Assembly: GCA_963753345.1 (NCBI GenBank)
Contig: CAVWBU010000039.1
Span: 1 to 12,115 of the forward strand
From: an uncultured Fibrobacterota bacterium
GTDB lineage: Bacteria; Fibrobacterota; Chitinivibrionia; Chitinivibrionales; FEN-1185
Direction: 5' to 3'
Length of the DNA stretch: 12,115 nt
Positions 229 to 11,802 of this stretch are shown here, piece after piece. The translations under genes and the position numbers were made by a program. The notes beneath the pieces are model-generated. The model saw only the letters and a list, made by a program, of their open reading frames with translations. It did not search any database and was not told the origin of the DNA. Numbering within the stretch: the stretch's first letter is position 1; every line of letters starts with the position of its first letter.

Positions 229-1779
229 ATGCGGCACCGCAACGCATTTGCAGCCCGGTCAAGCGATATACTGTTTGTAAACCCCCTTCATCCGTACAAC
301 CACTATTTCACCCAGCCCGAACTCGTGCGGCTGATGCGCAAAAAAAACAGCCTGGCCCCGCTGTCGCTTGCGCTGCTCGCCGCGCTCACGCCGGACACCT
401 ACTCGACGATGGTGTGGGACGAGGACGTTATGCCCCTCGCCCCTCGCGCCGTGAAAGCGAAACTGGCTGGAATCAAGGTGGTGACGCCGGCGTCGGTCCG
501 GGCCTACGGTCTGGCTGACCGCTTCAGGGCGGAGGGAACAAAGGTCGTTTTTGGCGGGCCGCATATCACGGCGACAACGGTGGAGGCGGCGCTGGCGCAC
601 GCCGATGCCGTGGTCGTGGGCGAGGCCGAGGGTGTCTGGCCCGGCCTGCTCGACGATTTCGGGCGGGGAGCTTTGCAAAAAGTCTATTCGTCCGAAGGCC
701 TTATTCCCTATGCCAGGGCGGTGCTGCCGCGCTGGGACCTGTTCGACACCCGCAAGTACCTGTCGCTGCCCGTGCAGGCGTCGCGCGGGTGCCCTTACAA
801 TTGCGAATTCTGCAACGTGAGCGCCACCTACGGCCGCGCAGTGCGCGTGCGGGACATCGACAACGTGGTCGCAGAAGTGGCCTCGCTCCCGTTGAAGCGG
901 GTCTTCTTTGTTGACGACAATATTTCGATAAACCGCGGGTTTGCGCGGGACCTCATGCAGGGACTTGCGGGAACGGGCATCACCTGGTTCTGCCAGGCCA
1001 GCATCGACATCGCCGACGACGCGCCGCTACTTAGGGCAATGGCCGCAGCAGGATGCGAAAACATTCTTATCGGATTCGAATCGCTCAACAGCGCGAATCT
1101 CAAGGACGTGGAAAAACTCCACAACCTCCGCAGGGACTACAAGGAGGCTGTGCAAACAATCAACGCGGCCGGCATCCACGTGCAGGCCACGTTCATGTTC
1201 GGTCTTGACAACGACACGCTGGACGATTTGGAACGGCTCAACCGGTTAAGCCTCGATGCGCCCCTTCCTTTTCTATCGCTCAGTTTCGTCGCCGCGGCCC
1301 CCGGTACGCGCCTCGAGGATCGCGTGAAGAAAGAGGGGAGGCTGTACCCCATCCCCCCCGAAATCAACGGCGGCCTGTACCCCTCGATACGGCACCCGTC
1401 AATCGGTCCCGTGACGCAGTATAATGCCTTCGTTGATGCGTTGCAAAAGATGTACGGGTTCGACGCCGTGTACCATAAGGCGCGGTCCCTTTTTTCGTCC
1501 GGGCATTTTGCCGGTGCGAAGAAGGACTCCGAGGTTTCGTTCGCCGACAAGGTCAGGTTCAGCATCCTGCTTGTACGGGCGTATTTATTAACAAATGATA
1601 AATGGCGGCGCCGGCTGCTACTGTATCTGTTTTCGCTGGTCCGCGCAAAGACCGTCGCGCCGGAACGCGCGGTTGTCTTCCTGATGACCATGCACGCGTA
1701 TTCGCTCTCGGTGGAAAAGATTGCAGGGGAGAGGGAGAGAAGTTTGGAGATAATTCGAGAGTATACTGGAGAGAAATAA
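229..1779 (+). CDS. B12-binding domain radical SAM protein (class B methyltransferase-like; possible DUF4070-like C-terminus)
   Basis: ORF 211..1779 with CxxxCxxC in ASRGCPYNCEFC, cobalamin-binding features (PLSLALLAALTP, VVFGGPH, DAVVVGEAE), FFVDDN, IGFES and FMFGLDND. Start placed at ATG 229 because GGAG lies at 219-222; ATG 217 is an alternative. Confidence 0.92.
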   Translation: MRHRNAFAARSSDILFVNPLHPYNHYFTQPELVRLMRKKNSLAPLSLALLAALTPDTYSTMVWDEDVMPLAPRAVKAKLAGIKVVTPASVRAYGLADRFRAEGTKVVFGGPHITATTVEAALAHADAVVVGEAEGVWPGLLDDFGRGALQKVYSSEGLIPYARAVLPRWDLFDTRKYLSLPVQASRGCPYNCEFCNVSATYGRAVRVRDIDNVVAEVASLPLKRVFFVDDNISINRGFARDLMQGLAGTGITWFCQASIDIADDAPLLRAMAAAGCENILIGFESLNSANLKDVEKLHNLRRDYKEAVQTINAAGIHVQATFMFGLDNDTLDDLERLNRLSLDAPLPFLSLSFVAAAPGTRLEDRVKKEGRLYPIPPEINGGLYPSIRHPSIGPVTQYNAFVDALQKMYGFDAVYHKARSLFSSGHFAGAKKDSEVSFADKVRFSILLVRAYLLTNDKWRRRLLLYLFSLVRAKTVAPERAVVFLMTMHAYSLSVEKIAGERERSLEIIREYTGEK

Positions 1780-2266: not shown

Positions 2267-2306
2267 CCCCTTGTAGAGCCGGACAGCCGTGTGGCTCTAC
2301 AAGGGG
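2267..2306. repeat. 14-bp inverted repeat, GTAG-type REP-like hairpin
   Basis: CCCCTTGTAGAGCC (2267-2280), 12-nt loop, GGCTCTACAAGGGG (2293-2306). Confidence 0.7.
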
Positions 2307-2336
2307 GAGCGCCCATTTTTTCTCATTTTTTAATAT

Positions 2337-3809
2337 TTATTCTACCGGCGTCGGAGCATTTGAAAAGCGGGAGAGCGTCTGGGGAACGGATTCTTTGGAA
2401 GCGCGTATGAGTTCGGGGACCGTCACAAAGGAATAGCCGCGCGCCTTGAGATCGCGGATGATGGCTGGAAGGGCCTGCACGGTGCTCGCGCACTGCGGGT
2501 TGGGCCTGGTTTCGAGGCCGTCGTGCAGCAGGATGATTGATCCGGCGCGCGTCTTTGAAAGCACGCGCTGTTCGATTGTCCTGGCGCTCACTTTCTGCCA
2601 GTCGTCGGGAGATACGGTCCATGTGACCACGGTGTAGTGGTCTTTTCTTGCAAGCCCCATCATCCACGGGCTGCGCCAGCCGTGCGGGGGCCGGAAGTAT
2701 TCGGGAACAACGCCGCACGCAATGCGAATGGCGGCGGTAGCCTTGTCGATTTCTGCGTTTATCCTGTCCGGCGTTTCAACCGGGGCCCAGAAGGGGTGCG
2801 AATAGGTGTGGTTTCCCACCACATTACCGTCCTGCACGATCCGCCTGGCAATGACCGGGCGACGCTCCACGTTCTTGCCGATCAGGAAAAACGTGGCATG
2901 TACGTCGTATCTGGAAAGCGTGTCGAGAATCTCCCGGGTGTAGGCGCTGGGGCCGTCGTCAAAGGTGAGCGCCACCAGCGGCTTGTTTTGCAGACCGTGG
3001 GCGAACACCGACCCGAACAGCCTGTTCTCCGTGTTTTCGGTGACAAAGAGAAAGCACGCGACGGCGCAGGCGGCAACCGCATATTTCATGAAGGGAAAAC
3101 GCGAAGCGGCGGCATATTGCGCCCGCCTGATGTTGGGAAAATCGTAGAAAACCGGCCGTTTCAGGAGATACAGCGAGAGATCGTTGAGGTAATAACGGTA
3201 CAAGGTCTGGAAAAAGGCGAATTGAAACCTTCGTCCCGATGTTTTCACTATTATTTTCCTGTCGATAAGGACTCTGCCGAAGCGCTTGATTCGCAGGCCA
3301 AGCTCAACGTCGGCTCCCAAATTTACCTCGGGATTGAAACCGCCGCTTGCCAGATATACGGAGCGCCACAGGGCCATATTGGCGCCGGCAAGATGATAGT
3401 TCAAACGTCCCCCCACCTCTCCCATAAGCTTTACAAGAATGGGGCCGTCGTGGAAGGTGAACACGCCGCTGCATGCCACGATCCCCGGCTTCGAGAGGTT
3501 GCAAACCATTTTGGAAATCCAGCAGGGCGGGGCCATGGTGTCGCCGTCGGTGCAGGCGATGATATCCCCGCACGCCTCTGAGAACCCGGCCCTTAGCGCG
3601 TGAACGTAGCCTTTTTTCGGCTCGTACACTACGCGCGCGCCCCCCAACCGCGCGAGGCGCGCCGTGTCGTCGGTGGAGGCGTTGTCGACGACGATGACTT
3701 CAATGTCTCCGTCGTAGTCCTGCTGTTTAAGCGAAGAAACGCACGCAGCGATCAATTCTTCTTCGTTGAACGCAGGCACAACGATGGAAACTGAAGGTCT
3801 TTGCTTCAT
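2337..3809 (-). CDS. Family 2 glycosyltransferase fused to a NodB/CE4 polysaccharide deacetylase
   Basis: N-terminal GT2 motifs: VSIVVPAFNEE, VIVVDNASTD, DxD (TDGD), GANMA, TSGRR. Hydrophobic segment YAVAACAVACFLFV. C-terminal CE4 motifs: LTFDDGP, ATFF, GNHTYSHP, FRPPHG, DW, IILLHDG. Confidence 0.93.
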   Translation of the reverse strand: MKQRPSVSIVVPAFNEEELIAACVSSLKQQDYDGDIEVIVVDNASTDDTARLARLGGARVVYEPKKGYVHALRAGFSEACGDIIACTDGDTMAPPCWISKMVCNLSKPGIVACSGVFTFHDGPILVKLMGEVGGRLNYHLAGANMALWRSVYLASGGFNPEVNLGADVELGLRIKRFGRVLIDRKIIVKTSGRRFQFAFFQTLYRYYLNDLSLYLLKRPVFYDFPNIRRAQYAAASRFPFMKYAVAACAVACFLFVTENTENRLFGSVFAHGLQNKPLVALTFDDGPSAYTREILDTLSRYDVHATFFLIGKNVERRPVIARRIVQDGNVVGNHTYSHPFWAPVETPDRINAEIDKATAAIRIACGVVPEYFRPPHGWRSPWMMGLARKDHYTVVTWTVSPDDWQKVSARTIEQRVLSKTRAGSIILLHDGLETRPNPQCASTVQALPAIIRDLKARGYSFVTVPELIRASKESVPQTLSRFSNAPTPVE

Positions 3810-3908
3810 GGATGCTCGAGAATCTTTGTACCAGTTAAATGCAAAACGGTGAAGAATAAAGACTGGACCGACTGTGATTTAAACGGGCTGCAAAACAACC
3901 CATGTAAA

Positions 3909-3936
3909 ATAATACAATAAGTGCGGCTGGAGTCAA
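3909..3936 (-). promoter_or_regulatory. Putative sigma70 promoter of the GT2-deacetylase gene
   Basis: Minus strand TTGACT (3936-3931), 16 nt, TATTAT (3914-3909), in an AT-rich stretch about 100 nt upstream of the start codon. Confidence 0.45.
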
Positions 3937-3983
3937 GGGAAACCTGATATAAATATTCTAGCAGATTTTAAAAAGAAAAGATT

Positions 3984-4382
3984 TGGGCGCCCCGCCGCCG
4001 TTGCGGCGGCGGCCCTCGCTTCGGTCTCGGCCTTCGGCCTCGGGCCGCCTCGGCCCTATGGCCCACAGGGCCGGGTCCGGGCGGCACCGCGCTTTAGCGC
4101 GGCCTTCGTTCCGGCCTGGCGCGTGGCATCAGAATGGTTCCACAATTTTAATGCGCCTGACCAATAAGAATTCAGTTGCGCTGTTATGGGAATATTTCAG
4201 ATGACGCAAGAAATAATTCTTGACAGAACATAGCTCTGTTGCCGCGCGCCAGGCAGGACTGGAAGGTGCGCTGGAGCGCATTGCCGGCCGACCCCGGCCG
4301 AAGGCCTTTGGGGCGGTCCGGCAGCGAGGCCGATAGGCCGAGCCTGGAAGGAGGGCCGCCGCCGTCTTCGGCGGGGCGCCCA
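3984..4382. repeat. Composite inverted structured repeat, copy B (left arm ~3984-4122, right arm ~4245-4382)
   Basis: Termini TGGGCGCCCCGCCG...CGGCGGGGCGCCCA form a 14-bp terminal inverted repeat. Inner ends CCTGGCGCG / CGCGCCAGG. The reverse complement of the right arm aligns along the whole left arm. A-rich left flank and T-rich right flank, as in copy A. Confidence 0.85.
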
Positions 4383-4406
4383 GAATTTTTTAACTTTTCT
4401 TACTCA

Positions 4407-4427
4407 GGTGTATACCAATGGTATACG
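4407..4427 (+). promoter_or_regulatory. 21-bp pseudo-palindromic operator box, copy 1 (upstream of the TIGR02147 gene)
   Basis: GGTGTATACCAATGGTATACG, with core palindrome GTATACC-N3-GGTATAC. 19/21 identical to 9747-9767 and to the reverse complement of 9676-9696. Confidence 0.75.
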
Positions 4428-4444
4428 AAAAGTTTTTGAGGCTG

Positions 4445-4473
4445 TTGATTTTATTCCTTGGATGGCGTATACT
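4445..4473 (+). promoter_or_regulatory. Sigma70-type promoter of the TIGR02147 operon (probably leaderless transcript)
   Basis: TTGATT (4445-4450), 17 nt, TATACT (4468-4473). ATG at 4482 follows after only 8 nt, with no Shine-Dalgarno sequence. Confidence 0.7.
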
Positions 4474-4481
4474 TCTAAGTA

Positions 4482-5312
4482 ATGAAAAAGACCTCCATCT
4501 TCCACTACATCTGCTATCAGGACTACCTGAAAGCGTACTTCGCCGCGCGGAAGAAGGACGATCCGAAGTTCTCCCACCGCTTTCTTTCCACCAGGCTCGG
4601 GCTTTCGTCCCCGAATTTCATCATGCTGGTGATGCAGGGCAAGCGCAAGCTCACCCGGTCCATGGCGTTCAAGATATCGCGGGCGTTCAGACTGTTGCCG
4701 AAAGAGGCGGAATACCTTGAGTCCATGGTGGAATTCACCAGGGCGGCGTCGAACTCGGAAAAGGACAAATATCTTTCGCGCATGATGGAACTTCGCAAAG
4801 ACACGGACGTAAACAAGCTTGCCGATTACCAGTACGAGTATTATTCCAAATGGTACAATCTTGCGATACGGGAACTGGCCGCGTCCCCCGAATTCAAGGG
4901 CGACTATGCCTGGCTTGCCAGAAAAGTATTCCCGCCCGTCACTCCCGGCCAGGCCAGGGACTCGGTTGAATTGCTCCTCAAGCTCGGGCTTCTCAAAAAG
5001 AAAGGCGGCGTTTTTGTCCGCAACTCGCCGCTTATCACCACGGGCCCGGAAGTGTCGTCCGTGGCAGTTGCGAATTTCCACCGCGCCATGGCCCGGCTCG
5101 CGTCCGAAGCGCTCGACACGGTGAGCCGGGACGAGCGGAACATGACCGCCTGCACCGTGAATATCTCGCGCAAGGGGTTTGAAGAGATCAAAGAAGCAAT
5201 CGCGGAATGCAGGGGCAGGGTGCTTGCGGTCGCGGAAAAAGACGCGGCGGCGGACAGGGTGTACCAGGTGAACTTCCACGTGTTTCCGGTTTCCAGAAAG
5301 AACAATGGATGA
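4482..5312 (+). CDS. TIGR02147 family protein (N-terminal HTH plus DUF4423), putative transcriptional regulator
   Basis: 276 aa. Family hallmarks: 'IFHY..YQDYLK.YF..RK..DPKFSHRFLS.RLGLSSPNFI..V.QGKRKL', 'YYSKWY..AIREL', 'A..SVELL.KLG', 'FHRAM..LA.EAL......ER', 'VYQVNFHVFPVS'. Confidence 0.9.
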   Translation: MKKTSIFHYICYQDYLKAYFAARKKDDPKFSHRFLSTRLGLSSPNFIMLVMQGKRKLTRSMAFKISRAFRLLPKEAEYLESMVEFTRAASNSEKDKYLSRMMELRKDTDVNKLADYQYEYYSKWYNLAIRELAASPEFKGDYAWLARKVFPPVTPGQARDSVELLLKLGLLKKKGGVFVRNSPLITTGPEVSSVAVANFHRAMARLASEALDTVSRDERNMTACTVNISRKGFEEIKEAIAECRGRVLAVAEKDAAADRVYQVNFHVFPVSRKNNG

Positions 5313-5322
5313 GGAGCCGAAT

Positions 5323-7092
5323 ATGAAAAATTGTCCATTGATGAAGCCGGCTGTGCTGGTTGTCTTGGCCCTGGTCCTTTCGCACGTGAATTGCACACGC
5401 ATTGTTTCGGGCGGAGGGACGGAAACGGGCAACCCAACGGTTTCCGCCATGCTCTACAATCCCGGCGGCTCGCCCGCTGCGCATGCCAAGGTAAGGTTTT
5501 ATCCTGTCAATTACAACCCCCGTACCGGCGGCCTGTCCAAGAAACTGGCCGCGGCCGATTCCACATCGACCGACGCCAACGGCAATTACACCGCAAAATT
5601 AGACACCGGCGCATATAACGTGCTTGCCAGCGGCGACAGCGGCGTGGTGTATCAGGACTCGATAACCGTTGTCAAAGACTCAACCATTCACCCGCCTGCC
5701 GACACGCTGAAGGCGCCGGGAGGGATACGGGGAAGGGTGCGTTTGCAGCCTGGGGATGACGCGAGGACCGTGTTTATCCTGTTCTTGGGGACAAATACGT
5801 GGGGAACACCGGATGACTCGATTGGCAGGTTTACCGTTGCGAACATGGCGGAAGGAACGTATCGGGTGAGGATTTTGACGACGCTCGATGCATATGTGCC
5901 GAAGGACACGGTGCTGAGCGTGAGTGCGGGGAGGACGGATTCGCTGCCGCATGATATTGTGCTGCAATATACGGGGATTCCGGTGGTGGGAGGATTTCAG
6001 ATAAGCTATGATTCGTTGAAGGAGATTGTTACGCTAATCTGGAAAAGGGCCGATACAGCACTGGTTAAATCATACAACGTTTATCGCAGAAATATCGATT
6101 CAAATACCATACTGGGGAGAATAAACTCAGTACCAATCATAGACACGACATTTGCAGATTCTGGCACAATTCAAGGCCAAGCGTATGAGTATGAGGTAGC
6201 TGCGGTTAATAAGAGTGATGCTGAAGGAAACAAAACTACAGGAATCTCCTTAACTGCAACAAGTGCTTTTGAGCTTACCACAACTATAGGAAATGGCGAA
6301 GGAATAGGCCCTGGTAAGTTTTCTGGTCTCATGGGCATTGCAGTCGATCGATACGGCAATATATACGCCGTCGACAATGGGCACCAGTTAATCCACAAGT
6401 TCGATGCAAATGGCATTGAAACGTTAGAATGGGGTGGAACATTTGGCAACAGTGCAGGACAATTCAGGTATCCAACAGGCATTTGCGTTGACACTTTCGG
6501 CTACGTTTACGTTGCCGACGCCGAGAATGACCGCGTGCAAAAATTTGACAGTAACGGGAGCTTCATTCTGGCGTGGGGCAGCACCGGCTCCGGAGATGGT
6601 CAGTTCCAGAACACCTATGCTATCTCTGCTAATAGCGCATTTGTATACGTGGGGGAAGGGCAGGGTACGCGCGTACAAAAGTTTGATTTGCAAGGCACCT
6701 ATATTTCAACTATCAGCGTCAATGCAAAACCGAATGCTGTGTTTGCAAACGACAGTTGCGTTCTTGTCATTTCAGAGGGCAAGAACATTTTGAGATTTAC
6801 GGTTGATGGAACATTTGTCGATACCGTTTATCAGGCCAGAAGCAGACCTGGCATTAGCTATCCAGACAGTGTAATTATAGGCGACCTGTGCGCCTTTGGC
6901 CCTAGCGTTTACACTGTCAAACCATATGAGGAAACGGTCGTGGGTCTTGACTACAGTGGAAAAGAAATCTTCGAATGGCAAATAACGAGTGGTGTGTCCG
7001 AGAATTGGCCGCAACGAATCGATGTGGTAAGCGACCAGAGCATCTTCGTTTCTACTGTAGCAGGATACGTTCTGAAGTATCGGCTAAAATGA
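5323..7092 (+). CDS. Putative lipoprotein: GGGTETGN motif, two carboxypeptidase-regulatory/Ig-like domains, FN3-like domain, NHL-repeat beta-propeller
   Basis: RBS GAGGAG (5311-5316) overlaps the upstream stop and precedes ATG 5323. Hydrophobic leader ends in Cys (VLVVLALVLSHVN-C), followed by SGGGTETGN. 'TDANGNYT..LDTGAYNV'; FN3-like 'VTLIWK...SYNVYRR...YEYEVAAVN'; NHL repeats 'GIAVDRYGNIYAVDNGHQLIHKFD' and 'GQFRYPTGICVDTFGYVYVADAENDRVQKFD'. Confidence 0.88.
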   Translation: MKNCPLMKPAVLVVLALVLSHVNCTRIVSGGGTETGNPTVSAMLYNPGGSPAAHAKVRFYPVNYNPRTGGLSKKLAAADSTSTDANGNYTAKLDTGAYNVLASGDSGVVYQDSITVVKDSTIHPPADTLKAPGGIRGRVRLQPGDDARTVFILFLGTNTWGTPDDSIGRFTVANMAEGTYRVRILTTLDAYVPKDTVLSVSAGRTDSLPHDIVLQYTGIPVVGGFQISYDSLKEIVTLIWKRADTALVKSYNVYRRNIDSNTILGRINSVPIIDTTFADSGTIQGQAYEYEVAAVNKSDAEGNKTTGISLTATSAFELTTTIGNGEGIGPGKFSGLMGIAVDRYGNIYAVDNGHQLIHKFDANGIETLEWGGTFGNSAGQFRYPTGICVDTFGYVYVADAENDRVQKFDSNGSFILAWGSTGSGDGQFQNTYAISANSAFVYVGEGQGTRVQKFDLQGTYISTISVNAKPNAVFANDSCVLVISEGKNILRFTVDGTFVDTVYQARSRPGISYPDSVIIGDLCAFGPSVYTVKPYEETVVGLDYSGKEIFEWQITSGVSENWPQRIDVVSDQSIFVSTVAGYVLKYRLK

Positions 7093-7120
7093 GGCGCCTC
7101 CCTTTCTAAAAGGAGGCGCC
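7093..7120. terminator. Hairpin between convergent genes, possible bidirectional terminator
   Basis: GGCGCCTCC (7093-7101), CTTTCTAAAA, GGAGGCGCC (7112-7120), directly after the TGA at 7092 and 20 nt from the stop at 7141. No strong U-tract. Confidence 0.55.
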
Positions 7121-7140
7121 CCCAACCGGAGTTTCTATCC

Positions 7141-9387
7141 TCAAGGTGGCGTTGTAGTGTGCGTCCAAGTGACGCCGGTACCGGTCAGATTCAGATACTT
7201 GTATCTGACTGTCCCCGCATCATTGAACTGTATGATAAGTTTATTATTGCGGATGTAAACTCTCCCTTCCGCATTTTGAGCGGGACTCGGTGGGGCACTT
7301 GTCGGATAAAGGGTTGCAGCCCCATTAATTGCGAACGCCGTTCTTACCGCAGAATTTGTACCAGGGGCATTTCCCTGTGACTCCCTGTAATCATTCCCAT
7401 ATACTATTCCGACATCCGCACCGCTGGTAATACTAATGCATTGCGTAAATCCGCCGCTATTGTGCTGAAACAAACACCCGTATATCTGGGCTCGGCCTTT
7501 TGTAACATACACGCCGTTTGCGACGGCCGTAGTATTGTCGATAAACAGAAAACTGGTTACCCTCAAGAAAAACTGTATTTCCCAGTCAATTGTGTTCCCG
7601 CCTATCCAACTCATTAAAGTGCCGTTGGTCAGCATGAGCGAGCATTGAGACGACGCGTTGCTGTTGGGATCGCCGTAAATGCAATGGTTCCTCGCGTACA
7701 CGGTCGACGCTTGGTTGACGTTTCCGACGTTCCCACATGTTATTCTAACATTCACAAATTCGGCATTCGCGACATGTGCGCCCGATTGGGAAACGTAAAT
7801 GCCGCAATCTGCCATGTCAAACTGGATATTTGTCCCGAAAAGACCTTGAACAGATCCCGTTGTAGCGTCGTCGGTAATCCATATGCCGTTGTGCGCGAAT
7901 ATTGCGAAGATATCCTTAAGCACCAGGAAAACCGCGTGCGCTATCTTGATTGCCGTCAGGTTTTGAACAAAGAAGGTGTTCCAGTCATTACGGAGATTTG
8001 GTGTCGCATCATAGGTGTAGTCGTACAAATAAAAGAAATCCGGCTGGAAGTGAACCTTTTCTATGTAGCTTACATCGGAAAGATTGTTGATGGAAATTCC
8101 AATAGACAAAGGGCAACCGTATATGTTGCATACATGGTTTCTTCCAACGCCGCCGCCCCCTTGGCCGGCTTGCGCTTCCATTTTGATTCCCTGATACGGA
8201 TTGACAAGAAGTAAGTTCATGGCCCTGCAATCGCAAACGTAACCGTTCGCTTGGCTAATGGAACTGTTGCTCTGGAACTCAATACAATAGGGGTATAGCT
8301 GAACAGTAAACGAGGTAGAACCTGACGTACCTTGAAGGTATTGGATGGGATAGTAGATTGTCAGCCCTTCAACCGAACAGGAGCCGCCCATGGCCCCATA
8401 CGGACTCTGATTGACGCCACCCGAAAGAGTAATGAATGATGGATGAGATGCATCGCCGGCGGTTCCTTGGTTCGACAGACATAATAGGACAGGGCCCTGG
8501 GGGATTCCCGCCTGCCAACGGTTGCTTATCCATGTGGGTGAAGCCGACCACATCCCCCGCAAAATGACGTTAGTCGGTATGAATATTGTAGTGGTACTGT
8601 TGTTGAATATGTAGTAGCCGGTTGGCACGTAAACAACGCCGCCACCCTCGGTACCGGCCGCGGAAAGCGCCTGGTTGAATGCAAATGTGTTATCGCCAGA
8701 AGTGCCGGCCGAGGTTACCTTCCAACTCACATTGCTTATCGTACCTGAGCTGTAACCCCGAAACGAACCGGAAATTGTGAGATAGCCGCTGTAAACGTTT
8801 GTGACCGTATACATTCCAAGGTTTGCGTTGTTTTGGACCCATAGTATGTCTCCGTTGGTCACATTGGAAGTATTAATATTTGAATCAGTGAGTGTATTGG
8901 ACGCAGTGATTTGTCCGATGATGCTTGCCACTCTCGTTTGGAGTTGCACCGCCCCATAATCAAGCACATTATACACTTTCTGTGTCGTCGCGACCCTTTT
9001 CAACCCCGGATACCCCGTCCCATCGTCGACCTGAATGTTTCCGTTAATCTTAAGGTCACCGTTGTTCTTGAAGATGGCGGTTGTCGCCAGGGCCGGCGTT
9101 CCCGTTGAATTCGGGTCCATCAAGATGCTGAGATCGCCGGTCGAATCGTTAATATCGAGCCCGCCCGCTTTGTTCCCATCCGTTATCCTATGCCAGGTCC
9201 CATCGTAATAGGCATTTTGAGTGATCCACAAATGTGGATTGTCGAGAATTCCCACGTGGTCAAGGCGAACCACGTTGGTCGATCCAGCGATATGCAGCGG
9301 TGCGGCGGGGGTTGTGGTAGCTATTCCTACCCTTCCATTCGTGCCGTCCGTGCCGTAACCTTCGGAGCCTAAATGCAGCGTAGCCAT
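7141..9387 (-). CDS. Tailspike/depolymerase-like right-handed beta-helix protein (Pectate_lyase_3-like N-cap), no signal peptide
   Basis: 748 aa, RBS AAAGGAG upstream. 'VYNVLDYGA...GDNTFAFNQALSAAGTEGGGVVYVPTGYY' is a Pectate_lyase_3/GH55-like cap. 'VEGLTIYYP', 'LVNPYQGI', 'NIYGCPLSIGI' and Asn/Gly-rich rungs follow. The N-terminal 'GRVGIATTTPAAPLHIAG' resembles a tail-fibre-type repeat. Confidence 0.82.
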   Translation of the reverse strand: MATLHLGSEGYGTDGTNGRVGIATTTPAAPLHIAGSTNVVRLDHVGILDNPHLWITQNAYYDGTWHRITDGNKAGGLDINDSTGDLSILMDPNSTGTPALATTAIFKNNGDLKINGNIQVDDGTGYPGLKRVATTQKVYNVLDYGAVQLQTRVASIIGQITASNTLTDSNINTSNVTNGDILWVQNNANLGMYTVTNVYSGYLTISGSFRGYSSGTISNVSWKVTSAGTSGDNTFAFNQALSAAGTEGGGVVYVPTGYYIFNNSTTTIFIPTNVILRGMWSASPTWISNRWQAGIPQGPVLLCLSNQGTAGDASHPSFITLSGGVNQSPYGAMGGSCSVEGLTIYYPIQYLQGTSGSTSFTVQLYPYCIEFQSNSSISQANGYVCDCRAMNLLLVNPYQGIKMEAQAGQGGGGVGRNHVCNIYGCPLSIGISINNLSDVSYIEKVHFQPDFFYLYDYTYDATPNLRNDWNTFFVQNLTAIKIAHAVFLVLKDIFAIFAHNGIWITDDATTGSVQGLFGTNIQFDMADCGIYVSQSGAHVANAEFVNVRITCGNVGNVNQASTVYARNHCIYGDPNSNASSQCSLMLTNGTLMSWIGGNTIDWEIQFFLRVTSFLFIDNTTAVANGVYVTKGRAQIYGCLFQHNSGGFTQCISITSGADVGIVYGNDYRESQGNAPGTNSAVRTAFAINGAATLYPTSAPPSPAQNAEGRVYIRNNKLIIQFNDAGTVRYKYLNLTGTGVTWTHTTTPP

Positions 9388-9629
9388 GATCGTCTCCTTT
9401 CGTGAGGTGAAAACACCTTGTGTTTAAAAATGGGATGAACCAGGTCAAAATATCTTTGTCATGATTGACGGCAGGCACCCGGCCTTTTCCGGCTTCCGCT
9501 CTGCCCGAAGCGGCATGATGCGCGATCCCCGGCCCGCTGGCCGCTCTGCGTTGCAACCGTATTCTTGCTTCTCATGCGTGCTTCTAACGACGAAATTCTA
9601 TTATTCACTTCTGCAGTATACTATGTAAT

Positions 9630-9658
9630 ATTGCAGGTGGGGGGGGGGCGAATGTCAA
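9630..9658 (-). promoter_or_regulatory. Putative promoter of the beta-helix gene with a poly-C(10) tract in the -35/-10 spacer
   Basis: Minus strand TTGACA (9658-9653), 17 nt containing C10 (G10 at 9639-9648 on +), then TGCAAT (9635-9630). The -10 is imperfect. Confidence 0.55.
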
Positions 9659-9675
9659 TACCAAATGCAACTTTC

Positions 9676-9696
9676 CGTATACCGTTGGAATACACC
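9676..9696 (-). promoter_or_regulatory. 21-bp operator box, copy 2 (oriented towards the beta-helix gene)
   Basis: CGTATACCGTTGGAATACACC on +, the exact reverse complement of 9747-9767. It ends 17 nt before TTGACA (9658-9653) on the minus strand. Confidence 0.75.
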
Positions 9697-9746
9697 ATTT
9701 GTCAAGTTACAAGTGCGGGGAATTTCTCTTGAAGTTATCGGCATCG

Positions 9747-9767
9747 GGTGTATTCCAACGGTATACG
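9747..9767 (+). promoter_or_regulatory. 21-bp operator box, copy 3 (oriented towards the secreted FN3 gene)
   Basis: GGTGTATTCCAACGGTATACG. After 17 nt comes a weak -35 (TGGCTT, 9785-9790), then an AT-rich -10 region (TATCTTATATAT, 9803-9814). Confidence 0.72.
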
Positions 9768-9862
9768 TTTTCTTTCTGAATCCGTGGCTTTCCGGCCCTA
9801 AATATCTTATATATAGGATTAAGAGAAAGAACCTGACTTTGCAGAGAAGGAAGGGGATCGCT

Positions 9863-11608
9863 ATGAAACGGAAATTCGCCTTGTTGATGCTCCTCGCGTT
9901 CCAGGCCTCCTTTGGACTGAGCGCACCCTACCTCTACTCCGCCGATTCGGTTGGGGCGGGCAAGGTCCAATTGACCTGGCGAAACAACGCCACGGACTAT
10001 GTTGGAATCGTAGTGCTGAGAAAACCCGGATTGACCGCGCAGTTCGCGGCTGTGGATACGGCCGCCGGCACTGCCACCACGTTCACGGATGCGGCCGTAC
10101 CTGGGTCGGCAACACCCTACGTATATGCGTTAACGGCATATTCTCAGACCGCGCATGCGGACACGTCGAACACCGACACGGTGACCATGGCGCCGACGAA
10201 GGTGCCGGATATTTTTGTAGAGCCGCAGAATCTGACCGTCTCCTATGATACGGTAACGCGCGTGGTTAATCTGCAATTCTATGACAGCTCCACTGCGGAA
10301 ACCGGGTACAGGATTTTCAGGTCGACCAACTTCGCCGCTTCCAAGATGATAAAAGATATCGTGTCATCAGCGCCTGCTCAAAAAGGAGAAATCTTGTGTA
10401 CGGATTCGGCGGTCTCTCCAAACACGTGGTATCTTTATTATGCTATAGCCTACAACAGCCAGCAAACCCTGAGTTCACTCTCTGACACTCTCTTCACCTT
10501 TGATGCGGGTGCCATGGCGCAGGGCGCTTCGAGGAAGTGCATTCTTTCCAGCAACCTGAGCACTTTTCCCATCACATACAAAGGTTGGAGTTTGAAAAGC
10601 GGGGATACCATCGTCCTCAACGAGACCGGCGCTCCCGACTCAACAACTTTTTCGATTATTGACATATCAAACCCCAGCGCGCCAAAGTTCGCAGGAACGG
10701 GAAAGTCTTCGGCGGCAATTTTGGGAAGGGCATCCGTTTCTCAGGGCGCGAACATCTTTGGAATTCCATACGGCGATTCGCTGTTCTGTTATCAGTACGC
10801 TACTGGTCAAATTAAAGTGATTAGCAGTAAGATTGTGCCAACGTTGACGAACGGTTTTCGTTGCCCGGCTGAGTTCTTCCCGGGCTTTCTGACTAATTCC
10901 TTGTTCGCAACTGCGGGCGAGATCAACTTTGGTATTGGAGGGTGGATATACCTCATCACGGCGTATTCGTTCAATAACAATGTCCTCTCGTTTGTCGACA
11001 CGGCCCTCATTTCCAACGGCGGCCGTTTCAATGCATTTGCGATTACAAACGGCAGGGCTTGCAACGGGAGATATTTCTTCAATGCCTTGCTCTCCACTGC
11101 CTATCCGCCGCCGGACAGCATATTCGAAATTGTCGACTTTGGCCTTTCTCCCAAGGCAAAGACGGTTATTTATCACCATGCTCAGGTCGATATCCCGTTG
11201 TTGATAAATGGTATTCTTGTTGACGCGCCGCCGCTTGAGAGCGCCAATAACATATTTATTGATACCGTGAAAAATCTTGTTGTCGCAGTGTCGGATTCGC
11301 AATTGTCAATCTTCAGCTGTCAACTTCAGGTTGGAACTATGCGCGGAATCTCCTTGCCGTTCTCTTCCCGGCAGAGGATACGCATGACAGGAGGGCCGGG
11401 CGGAGCGGCAAGTTTGATCCTCTTGCCCCGCCATGCAAAACCGGTTGAGTTGACCATCTTCAACGCTTCCGGAAAACGGGTTCAGGTTTTTAGCGGAATT
11501 CAGGGCGAATCGGTTGAATGGAACCCTGGAAACAGAACCGGCGTGTTCCTTGTCAAGGCCCTCATCGACAACCGCCTCTACACGGCCAGATTCGTCTTGT
11601 CAAGATAG
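9863..11608 (+). CDS. Secreted protein: signal peptide, two FN3-like domains, LVIVD-like region, C-terminal T9SS type A sorting/FlgD-Ig-like domain
   Basis: ATG 9863 follows AGGAAGGGGA and is in frame with ORF 9665..11608. Signal peptide MKRKFALLMLLAFQASFG. FN3-like 'VQLTWRNNA...YVYALTAY' and 'DSSTAETGYRIFRS...SPNTWYLYYAIAYN'. LVIVD-like 'FSIIDISNPSAPKFAG'. Tail 'VELTIFNASGKRV...VEWN....TGVFLVK......TARFVL'. Confidence 0.85.
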   Translation: MKRKFALLMLLAFQASFGLSAPYLYSADSVGAGKVQLTWRNNATDYVGIVVLRKPGLTAQFAAVDTAAGTATTFTDAAVPGSATPYVYALTAYSQTAHADTSNTDTVTMAPTKVPDIFVEPQNLTVSYDTVTRVVNLQFYDSSTAETGYRIFRSTNFAASKMIKDIVSSAPAQKGEILCTDSAVSPNTWYLYYAIAYNSQQTLSSLSDTLFTFDAGAMAQGASRKCILSSNLSTFPITYKGWSLKSGDTIVLNETGAPDSTTFSIIDISNPSAPKFAGTGKSSAAILGRASVSQGANIFGIPYGDSLFCYQYATGQIKVISSKIVPTLTNGFRCPAEFFPGFLTNSLFATAGEINFGIGGWIYLITAYSFNNNVLSFVDTALISNGGRFNAFAITNGRACNGRYFFNALLSTAYPPPDSIFEIVDFGLSPKAKTVIYHHAQVDIPLLINGILVDAPPLESANNIFIDTVKNLVVAVSDSQLSIFSCQLQVGTMRGISLPFSSRQRIRMTGGPGGAASLILLPRHAKPVELTIFNASGKRVQVFSGIQGESVEWNPGNRTGVFLVKALIDNRLYTARFVLSR

Positions 11609-11642
11609 CCGAGGCCCGGTGCCGGGCGTCTTCGCCAACGGT

Positions 11643-11681
11643 GAACCGTCCATGCTTCGACAAGCTCAGCACGAACGGTTC
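11643..11681 (+). repeat. REP-like hairpin of the CTTCGACAAGCTCAG family
   Basis: GAACCGT...TGCTTCGACAAGCTCAGCA-CGAACGGTTC. A related copy lies in the opposite orientation at 11882-11901. Confidence 0.65.
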
Positions 11682-11802
11682 TTCATTTATATGGACGTAG
11701 CGCTATTCTTGTCGTTCACTGTAGCTCAATCCGGCCGCTTGCTTTTGCGGAACACATCCCATAAGGCCATGCCTTTCTTCCCGCGCCAGGCAGGACCAAT
11801 CC

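Follow-up and report, generated by a model that had tools for sequence, protein, structure and literature searches.

A palindromic box at the promoter of a TIGR02147 gene in an uncultured Fibrobacterota bacterium as a candidate private operator

The DNA considered here (the window) is a stretch of 12,115 nt from an uncultured Fibrobacterota bacterium and is the whole of contig C39 (CAVWBU010000039.1) in a 4.5-Mb assembly (GCA_963753345.1; genome G000). It carries three copies of a palindromic box, one in front of a gene for a TIGR02147/DUF4423 protein and two between the genes for a tailspike-like and a secreted protein. Sequence comparison makes it probable that the box is a private operator of the TIGR02147 protein, which would act on it as an XRE-like dimer in the manner of a class I activator. 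The elements concerned are as follows.

4410–4426, plus strand: box 1, 17-bp core with perfect 7-bp arms, centre at 4418, 50 bp 5′ of the −10 hexamer
4445–4473, plus strand: predicted sigma70-type promoter behind box 1, TTGATT-17-TATACT (−10 at 4468)
4482–5312, plus strand: TIGR02147/DUF4423 protein, 276 amino acids, proposed reader of the box
9677–9693, minus strand: box 2, oriented to the tailspike-like gene, whose start is about 290 bp away
9639–9658, minus strand: promoter region of box 2, TTGACA at 9658–9653 and then a 10-base C run (G on the plus strand, 9639–9648) in the −35/−10 spacer
9750–9766, plus strand: box 3, the same as box 2 across all 21 bp, spacer included
9785–9813, plus strand: predicted promoter behind box 3, TGGCTT-17-TATATA (−10 at 9808), with a poor −35; same layout on contig C43

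A preliminary description of the window had reported the three sites as 21-mers at 4407–4427 (plus), 9696–9676 (minus) and 9747–9767 (plus), each followed at 17 nt by TTGATT (4445), TTGACA (9658, minus) or TGGCTT (9785), respectively. Both the sites and the gaps are correct, and 0 of 200 dinucleotide shuffles of the window yielded a match to the box. The 21-bp unit is real as a site but too long as a definition: the conserved part is a 17-bp palindromic core, GTAT(A/T)C(C/T)-N3-(A/G)GTATAC, while the 5′ GGT flank varies among homologues. The predicted −35/−10 pairs could be retained for boxes 1 and 3, which have a −10 at 17-bp spacing, but not for box 2. The centres of boxes 2 and 3 are 73 bp, or seven helical turns, apart. 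Outside the box, the flanks of boxes 1, 2 and 3 and of a further site on contig C35 are unrelated to each other.

Only 8 nt separate the −10 hexamer behind box 1 from the ATG, so the regulator mRNA probably has little or no leader. The same promoter layout, with TTGATT at equal offset, is present in five of seven close homologues. A consensus promoter scan of the window returned seven matches, which is the chance level (mean 6.2), and among the three promoters behind boxes it found only that of box 1; the promoters of the window therefore remain predictions.

The box is rare. A genome scan allowing up to two mismatches gave four exact copies, three in the window and one on C43. With a matrix trained on the boxes of seven homologues plus box 1, the top five sites in the genome were boxes 1–3 and the C43 and C35 sites (scores 21.8–27.4; next score 18.2). 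On C35, the distance from the site to the following TATAAT is exactly 50 bp, and the gene behind it encodes a 454-amino-acid protein with a type IX secretion system (T9SS) sorting domain. Since there are just five strong copies in 4.5 Mb, the box is not a dispersed repeat, and not a global site either, and the genome-wide scatter at loci without TIGR02147 that the preliminary description had named as an argument against itself was not found. Elements similar to repetitive extragenic palindromic sequences, which we had considered as an identity for the box and ruled out by this count, do occur in the window: GC-rich palindromic intergenic repeats lie at 1850–1960, 3980–4125 and 4225–4392, with about 50–230 matches of at least 60 bp across the genome, and one stops about 20 bp short of box 1. 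Five of 61 genomes contain the exact core, namely G000, the genome of an 89% identical orthologue (at its promoter) and three in which it falls within open reading frames (ORFs); the ORFs in these last three genomes (G009, G039 and G050) are long, and we took the matches to be due to chance.

Across genomes, the box follows the protein. At all seven homologous loci examined that have 59–89% identity to the regulator, a GTAT(A/T)C box precedes the start codon by 70–72 bp, and the genes upstream are unrelated. In the clade at 45–50% identity, the half-site is GTGT(T/A)C in 9/9 boxed promoters. The genome of the window itself has 18 TIGR02147 loci that exceed the cut-off, including three with a broken or truncated gene. 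Seven of its paralogues have a GT..AC box beginning 58–59 nt before the −10 (one matching at only 4/6 and read by eye), two have one at 67–69 nt, and all of these boxes are different. The broken copies (C13:6148-6951, C24:57692-58018 and C49:65622-66435) show an internal stop, a truncation and an apparent frameshift; the C49 copy retains its box, of which there is no other copy at promoter spacing.

For a family-wide comparison, we assembled 201 loci, 130 of them from the best 150 of 987 matches, 57 from further searches and the rest from this genome. Loci with less than 150 nt upstream were left out, and removal of near-identical promoters left 182. Perfect GT..AC palindromes of 16–18 bp with 6-bp arms are present in 52 of these promoters, compared with 0.96 in shuffles (at most 4 in any of 50 shuffles); at a match of at least 5/6 the count is 90/182 against 10.7 (maximum 16). 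In AT-rich control regions, the corresponding figures are 17/942 and 65/942. Each of the other 15 terminal dinucleotides gave 1–9 perfect palindromes among the 182 promoters, a comparison in which the GT frame had been picked after viewing the paralogues of this genome. The expectation of a separate palindrome for each paralogue is thus borne out in part: distinct boxes with the same spacing are found, but about half of the promoters have none. Similarly, the box does follow the local protein from genome to genome, but it is specific to a clade and not a site of the whole TIGR02147 family. One isolated site may be recorded here: in L201 (G003:C3:191909), GTATTC-N5-GAATAC stands about 59 bp before TATATT (spacing counted by eye), 13 kb from a boxless TIGR02147 gene whose protein has the helix TPNY.

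The regulator is a full member of TIGR02147 (270 bits, cut-off 50) and also matches DUF4423 (PF14394; 117.8 bits, cut-off 30). A structure model built with a 147-row alignment has a predicted local distance difference test score of 90, rising to 94–97 over residues 11–90 (single-sequence model: 42). It consists of an XRE/HigA-like helix-turn-helix (HTH) domain (residues ~10–93), a winged helix (~112–187) and a C-terminal helical/beta part. The closest folds to the N-terminal domain are HigA antitoxin repressors and DdrO. HigA chains lead both fold searches, with Z-scores of 8.2–8.9 in one (for 6chv, Z 8.2 and a root-mean-square deviation of 2.6 over 75 residues) and Foldseek E-values of only 0.05–0.4 in the other. 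For the middle domain, the matches are winged helices, residues 190–276 are barely covered, and Foldseek at E 0.001 found no solved structure covering the whole regulator, which does not establish a new fold. Pfam HTH_3 is not matched by the regulator and is matched by 10 of its 147 relatives at E 0.01. The region of residues 43–49 aligns weakly (E 0.48) with helix 3 of lambda CI.

It is these residues that covary with the box. We used 80 protein–box pairs, and 49 and 33 pairs after dereplication at 60% and 50%. Among 276 columns, N45, P44, L49 and S43 share the most mutual information with bases 3 and 4 of the half-site, and they remain on top at 49 and 33 pairs, although in these smaller sets some non-helix columns (A88, K64 and H200) are also high. 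When partial correlation removes the effect of overall identity, the 8-residue windows that rank first to twelfth all begin at residues 42–54. Moreover, for proteins less than 40% identical, half-site similarity was 0.40, 0.38, 0.47 and 0.78 with rising identity at the four residues (463, 317, 105 and 27 pairs). One association with a single residue concerns base 3, which is A in 18/21 proteins with proline 44 and in 2/54 without it. The half-sites thus covary best with residues 43–49, the predicted recognition helix, in agreement with the proposal that the box would change together with recognition-helix residues. The spacer measures 4, 5 or 6 bp, and its length covaries with positions 191, 194 and 223 in the C-terminal part of the protein, which may reflect dimer geometry or, alternatively, ancestry.

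Because the window's own box is too rare for the purpose, action in trans was assessed for another paralogue, C41:168387, whose box is GTTTTC-N5-GAAAAC. This genome has 21 exact copies of that box; at the right spacing and outside long ORFs there are 16 entries, mostly upstream of secreted proteins, and the targets include the C34 paralogue of the window gene at 9863. Over 61 genomes, whose kinship makes the counts non-independent, the median is 9 copies in the 23 with a matching paralogue and 1 in the 38 without, and 15/15 genomes with at least 6 copies encode the matching paralogue. Within the single family f5, the three genomes with the paralogue have 9, 14 and 30 copies, compared with 0–4 in the 23 without. 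In addition, GTTACA-N6-TGTAAC-type boxes were noticed 60.5–61.5 bp before a −10 with a poor −35 (C18:71430, 71447, 78731; C21:197807, 256269; C26:72066; C52:63044), in front of secreted proteins that by eye resemble glycoside hydrolases. Their assignment to paralogue C18:54854 is tentative, since its own copy is weak (4/6) and differently spaced.

Co-occurrence, sister palindromes and helix covariation all support the central idea of the preliminary description, that the local TIGR02147 protein reads the box, and on this comparative evidence direct binding appears very likely. What binding would do is suggested by position. Among 53 perfect boxes, 32 are at 49.5–51.5 bp and 11 at 59–62 bp from the best −10, with 10 elsewhere; the −35 match is 4.1/6 in the 50-bp group and 2.4/6 in the 60-bp group. 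With the start set 7 nt past the −10 (predicted, unmapped), the box centres fall at about −62 and −72. Class I sites of CRP peak at −61.5 and −71.5 (PMC4132738). The class I position claimed earlier for the regulator promoter therefore holds at about −62 from the predicted start, and 43/53 perfect boxes share one of the two distances. The promoter-side flank is also more A/T-rich than the far side, with an A-tract at 38/53 perfect boxes against 22/53. Together, spacing, −35 quality and the A/T-rich flank favour activation which, if the regulator binds, we consider likely.

In the mechanism that we propose, a dimer would place one XRE-type recognition helix (residues ~43–51) on each GTAT(A/T)C half-site. 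Since the box is 50 bp 5′ of the −10 and outside the core promoter, the dimer would most likely recruit RNA polymerase through the C-terminal domain of its alpha subunit (alpha-CTD). The regulator would switch on its own operon, lipoprotein included, in positive feedback; of the self-activating operon described earlier, the box at its own promoter is confirmed, with activation read from position alone. Further targets would be two T9SS-type genes, that at 9863 and the unlinked one on C35, and with less certainty the tailspike-like gene. With an own box for each paralogue, the family would amount to a set of switches, each insulated from the others, that control surface and secreted proteins.

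Several observations weigh against this proposal or narrow it. At box 2, no good −10 is found at 17 bp (TGCAAT is there), the best candidate being CAATAT at 19 bp, and a paralogue of the tailspike-like gene on C49 has a TTGACA–C-run promoter but no box; for both reasons this gene is a doubtful member of the regulon. The box type occurs 0–2 times in each of five related genomes searched, and no more than once or twice where the closest homologues are encoded, so regulon membership would be local and quick to change. In a tree-based independent-pairs test, the association of P44 with base A yielded too few pairs for a verdict (5 pairs, 2.6 in the same direction and 0.0 in the opposite one, p 0.25), and the other residue–base tests among those listed were weaker still. 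L040 (81% identical, P44 to S) and L058 retain GTATAC without the proline, so recognition does not pair single residues with single bases. No box at ≥5/6 was found in 92 of the 182 promoters, which come from loci chosen by similarity to the query and include non-independent kin. Most members of a large, conserved clade whose helix reads KSPNF (L012-L025, L099, L120, L122, L137) are without a box. Only 6 of 20 loci of rumen-Fibrobacter type (L204-L223) have a GT..AC palindrome, read by eye, and the rule may thus not cover the whole of TIGR02147. Many of the latter promoters have clade-specific repeated half-sites near the promoter, such as GTGTTC or TG(G/A)GAC, and 15-bp palindromes, possibly reflecting another binding mode. 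In the KSPNF clade, the downstream lipoproteins have a helical domain yet carry the GTETGNP tag discussed below.

The regulator might also bind the box and yet repress, or do both depending on concentration, by blocking alpha-CTD at a distal UP element or by bending DNA. Many XRE-family proteins autorepress, and the nearest folds are those of HigA repressors and DdrO. Moreover, the box covers about −70 to −54, adjoining the UP-element zone, promoters in the 50-bp phase have a fairly good −35, and half-sites in the Fibrobacter-type loci are repeated near the promoter. A possible leftward −10, 49 bp from box 3, would even put box 2 at its start site. Against this, the box does not overlap the −35 or −10, and the two spacing peaks are one helical turn apart, the farther one having the poorer −35, a phasing that repressors rarely need. 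We therefore consider repression unlikely, and activation by the bound regulator the better account.

The remaining alternatives would deny the regulator its box. Another factor, such as paralogue C32:93936 or C18:94598 or a global regulator, could be the reader, with adjacency being inherited linkage. Cross-talk is conceivable because C32:93936 has a similar GTATAC-N5-GAATAC box and the helix SPVF; the C43 box stays before a T9SS-type gene with no regulator adjacent, and the independent-pairs test is short of significance. However, both arms shift together between clades, covariation peaks at the recognition helix and not elsewhere, and box abundance tracks the matching paralogue even inside f5, which leaves another reader with little probability. 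Least probable, in our view, is a reading without any binding role, in which recombination duplicated pieces of promoter or the boxes mark the ends of a mobile cassette, the block 4390–9730 moving between them. Its attraction lies in the identity of boxes 2 and 3 over 21 bp including the spacer, in the similarity of the flank 5′ of box 3 to that 5′ of box 1 in L002, and in the strain-variant contig C43 (307–6209), which, like another such contig, C10, is 97% identical to the left part of the window. On C43, the glycosyltransferase gene is joined straight to the box and a T9SS-type gene (just 51% identical to that of the window past its start), and the regulator, lipoprotein and tailspike-like genes are absent. 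Yet the remaining flanks of boxes 1, 2, 3 and C35 are unrelated, a constant distance to the −10 and clade-specific compensatory changes would be unexpected of such sites, and no integrase or transposase was among the Pfam/NCBIfam matches of the six window proteins scanned. Duplication may explain the origin of the copies, not their retention.

If the box is indeed an operator of the regulator, its regulon can be sought among the neighbouring genes of the window.

5323–7092, plus strand: lipoprotein, 589 amino acids, with a signal peptide, Cys at 5392, a carboxypeptidase-regulatory-like domain and an NHL propeller
5410–5436, plus strand: Gly-rich tag GGGTETGNP, right behind the lipidated Cys of the lipoprotein
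7141–9387, minus strand: tailspike-like protein, 748 amino acids, weakest regulon member; 52% paralogue on C49
9863–11608, plus strand: secreted protein, 581 amino acids, with a weak C-terminal T9SS type A sorting domain (19.7 bits, cut-off 23)

The lipoprotein gene starts 10 nt after the regulator gene, and membership of this operon in the regulon is firm. There is independent support for the T9SS-type gene, because homologues (31–36% over ~290 amino acids) directly follow the regulator under its single box in L042 and L196. The 748-amino-acid protein matches nothing in Pfam or NCBIfam at E 0.001; its closest Atlas clusters contain phage proteins and pectate-lyase-like beta-helices, and its description as tailspike-like is a lead only. 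A 1399-amino-acid reverse gene in L196, examined as its counterpart, has no detectable homology and no box upstream, and thus lends no support to a conserved four-gene set. Of the four-gene module put forward in the preliminary description, the operon and the T9SS-type gene accordingly stand, but the genes are not conserved as a set and the tailspike-like gene is the weakest; conversely, the genome-wide matrix scan adds a probable fifth, unlinked member on C35. Elsewhere in the window, no box lies upstream of a B12-binding radical SAM gene (229–1779, plus strand) or of a gene for a fused family 2 glycosyltransferase/polysaccharide deacetylase (2337–3809, minus strand), and the window proteins scanned include no toxin or restriction gene.

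The C run at box 2 deserves separate mention. The C49 paralogue (C49:71967, minus strand) has TTGACA with an 8-base C run and a −10 candidate at 19 bp. G/C runs of at least 10 bases number six in the whole genome, and a loss of two bases from the run at 9639–9648 would give a 17-bp spacer, making this a candidate phase-variable promoter. Five DNA runs (peat and freshwater sediment; two studies) contain at least half of the stretch, and no RNA run is among the public runs listed. Among contigs from four DNA runs compared with window positions 2300–11700, two cross the G run at 9639 and have 1–2 gaps, which may or may not fall within the run.

An ORF directly follows the regulator at 165/172 loci, in most cases (by eye) a lipoprotein starting within a few bases of its stop. 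The tag behind the lipoprotein Cys has the consensus AGxGTETGN in 67 aligned members and is present even where the following domains are unrelated. The common downstream lipoproteins and their shared tag suggest that the lipoprotein is the input, and the lipoprotein or its tag would be the likeliest point of signal entry. A predicted complex between a dimer of the regulator and the 32 N-terminal residues of the mature lipoprotein scored 0.27 (mark 0.32), a score that gives no verdict. It is a speculative extension, and one that we would not expect to hold in full, that TIGR02147 cassettes form a class of trans-envelope signalling in which the lipoprotein senses a ligand and a released or exposed GGxTETGN tag controls the private-operator activator. 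If true, these genomes would carry tens of orthogonal sensor–activator channels running the secreted-enzyme and surface-protein repertoire of Fibrobacterota, four helix residues would write each private operator, and positive feedback could turn each channel into a bistable switch.

TIGR02147 is among the largest paralogous families of Fibrobacterota, with 18 loci here and dozens of candidates in some relatives; it is present in 140/151 genomes of the phylum searched and in 0/14 control genomes. In the papers searched, no function or site was found for TIGR02147 (Fsuc_second), supplements, which may name the family, being outside the search. In the papers searched, DUF4423 appears as a table row for Bdellovibrio Bd3700 only, and nothing relevant was among the papers listed by broader searches on Fibrobacter regulation. 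To this family, of which the window regulator is a full member, comparison now assigns a site, a rule for its spacing and residues that may set its specificity. Exact protein–DNA pairs, candidate residues and target lists make the control of secreted proteins in these polysaccharide degraders testable, and natural activators that do not cross-react, with operators of 16–18 bp, would be a useful model of how DNA specificity diversifies.

Among known systems, the arrangement recalls the way in which E. coli CRP activates class I promoters (PMC4132738), which likewise features a palindrome near −61.5 or −71.5 on the same helix face and A/T-rich DNA just downstream. The regulator is nevertheless unrelated to CRP, having an XRE-like HTH and a winged helix, and its ~18 paralogues appear to have private operators where CRP has one global site. 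Membership of the CRP/FNR family was rejected, as Pfam shows no cyclic-nucleotide domain in the regulator and its 147 relatives and the HTH is N-terminal. With XRE/Cro-CI proteins (HigA, lambda CI and C proteins such as C.AhdI), the regulator shares the N-terminal fold and, as proposed here, autoregulation at a palindrome. Lambda CI is translated from a near-leaderless mRNA made from PRM, which the predicted regulator mRNA resembles. CI and C proteins, however, activate from next to the −35, whereas the site described here is well upstream of it, and the regulator, with 276 amino acids, has a second, winged-helix domain. Its size, and neighbours that encode a lipoprotein and secreted proteins, also led us to reject a controller (C) protein of a restriction-modification system. 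Finally, pairs of surface sensors and regulators are known from the RRNPP peptide sensors, SigI-RsgI and the hybrid two-component and extracytoplasmic function (ECF) systems of Bacteroides. They too consist of many paralogous cassettes in which a regulator is coupled to a variable extracellular partner and controls secreted proteins. In TIGR02147 cassettes, by contrast, the partner is a lipoprotein in which no membrane-spanning signalling part was seen, and no sigma or kinase domain was matched, nor a tetratricopeptide repeat, in searches that barely covered residues 190–276 by fold. Most likely, then, the window presents a known kind of regulation in an uncharacterised family, with a testable recognition code.

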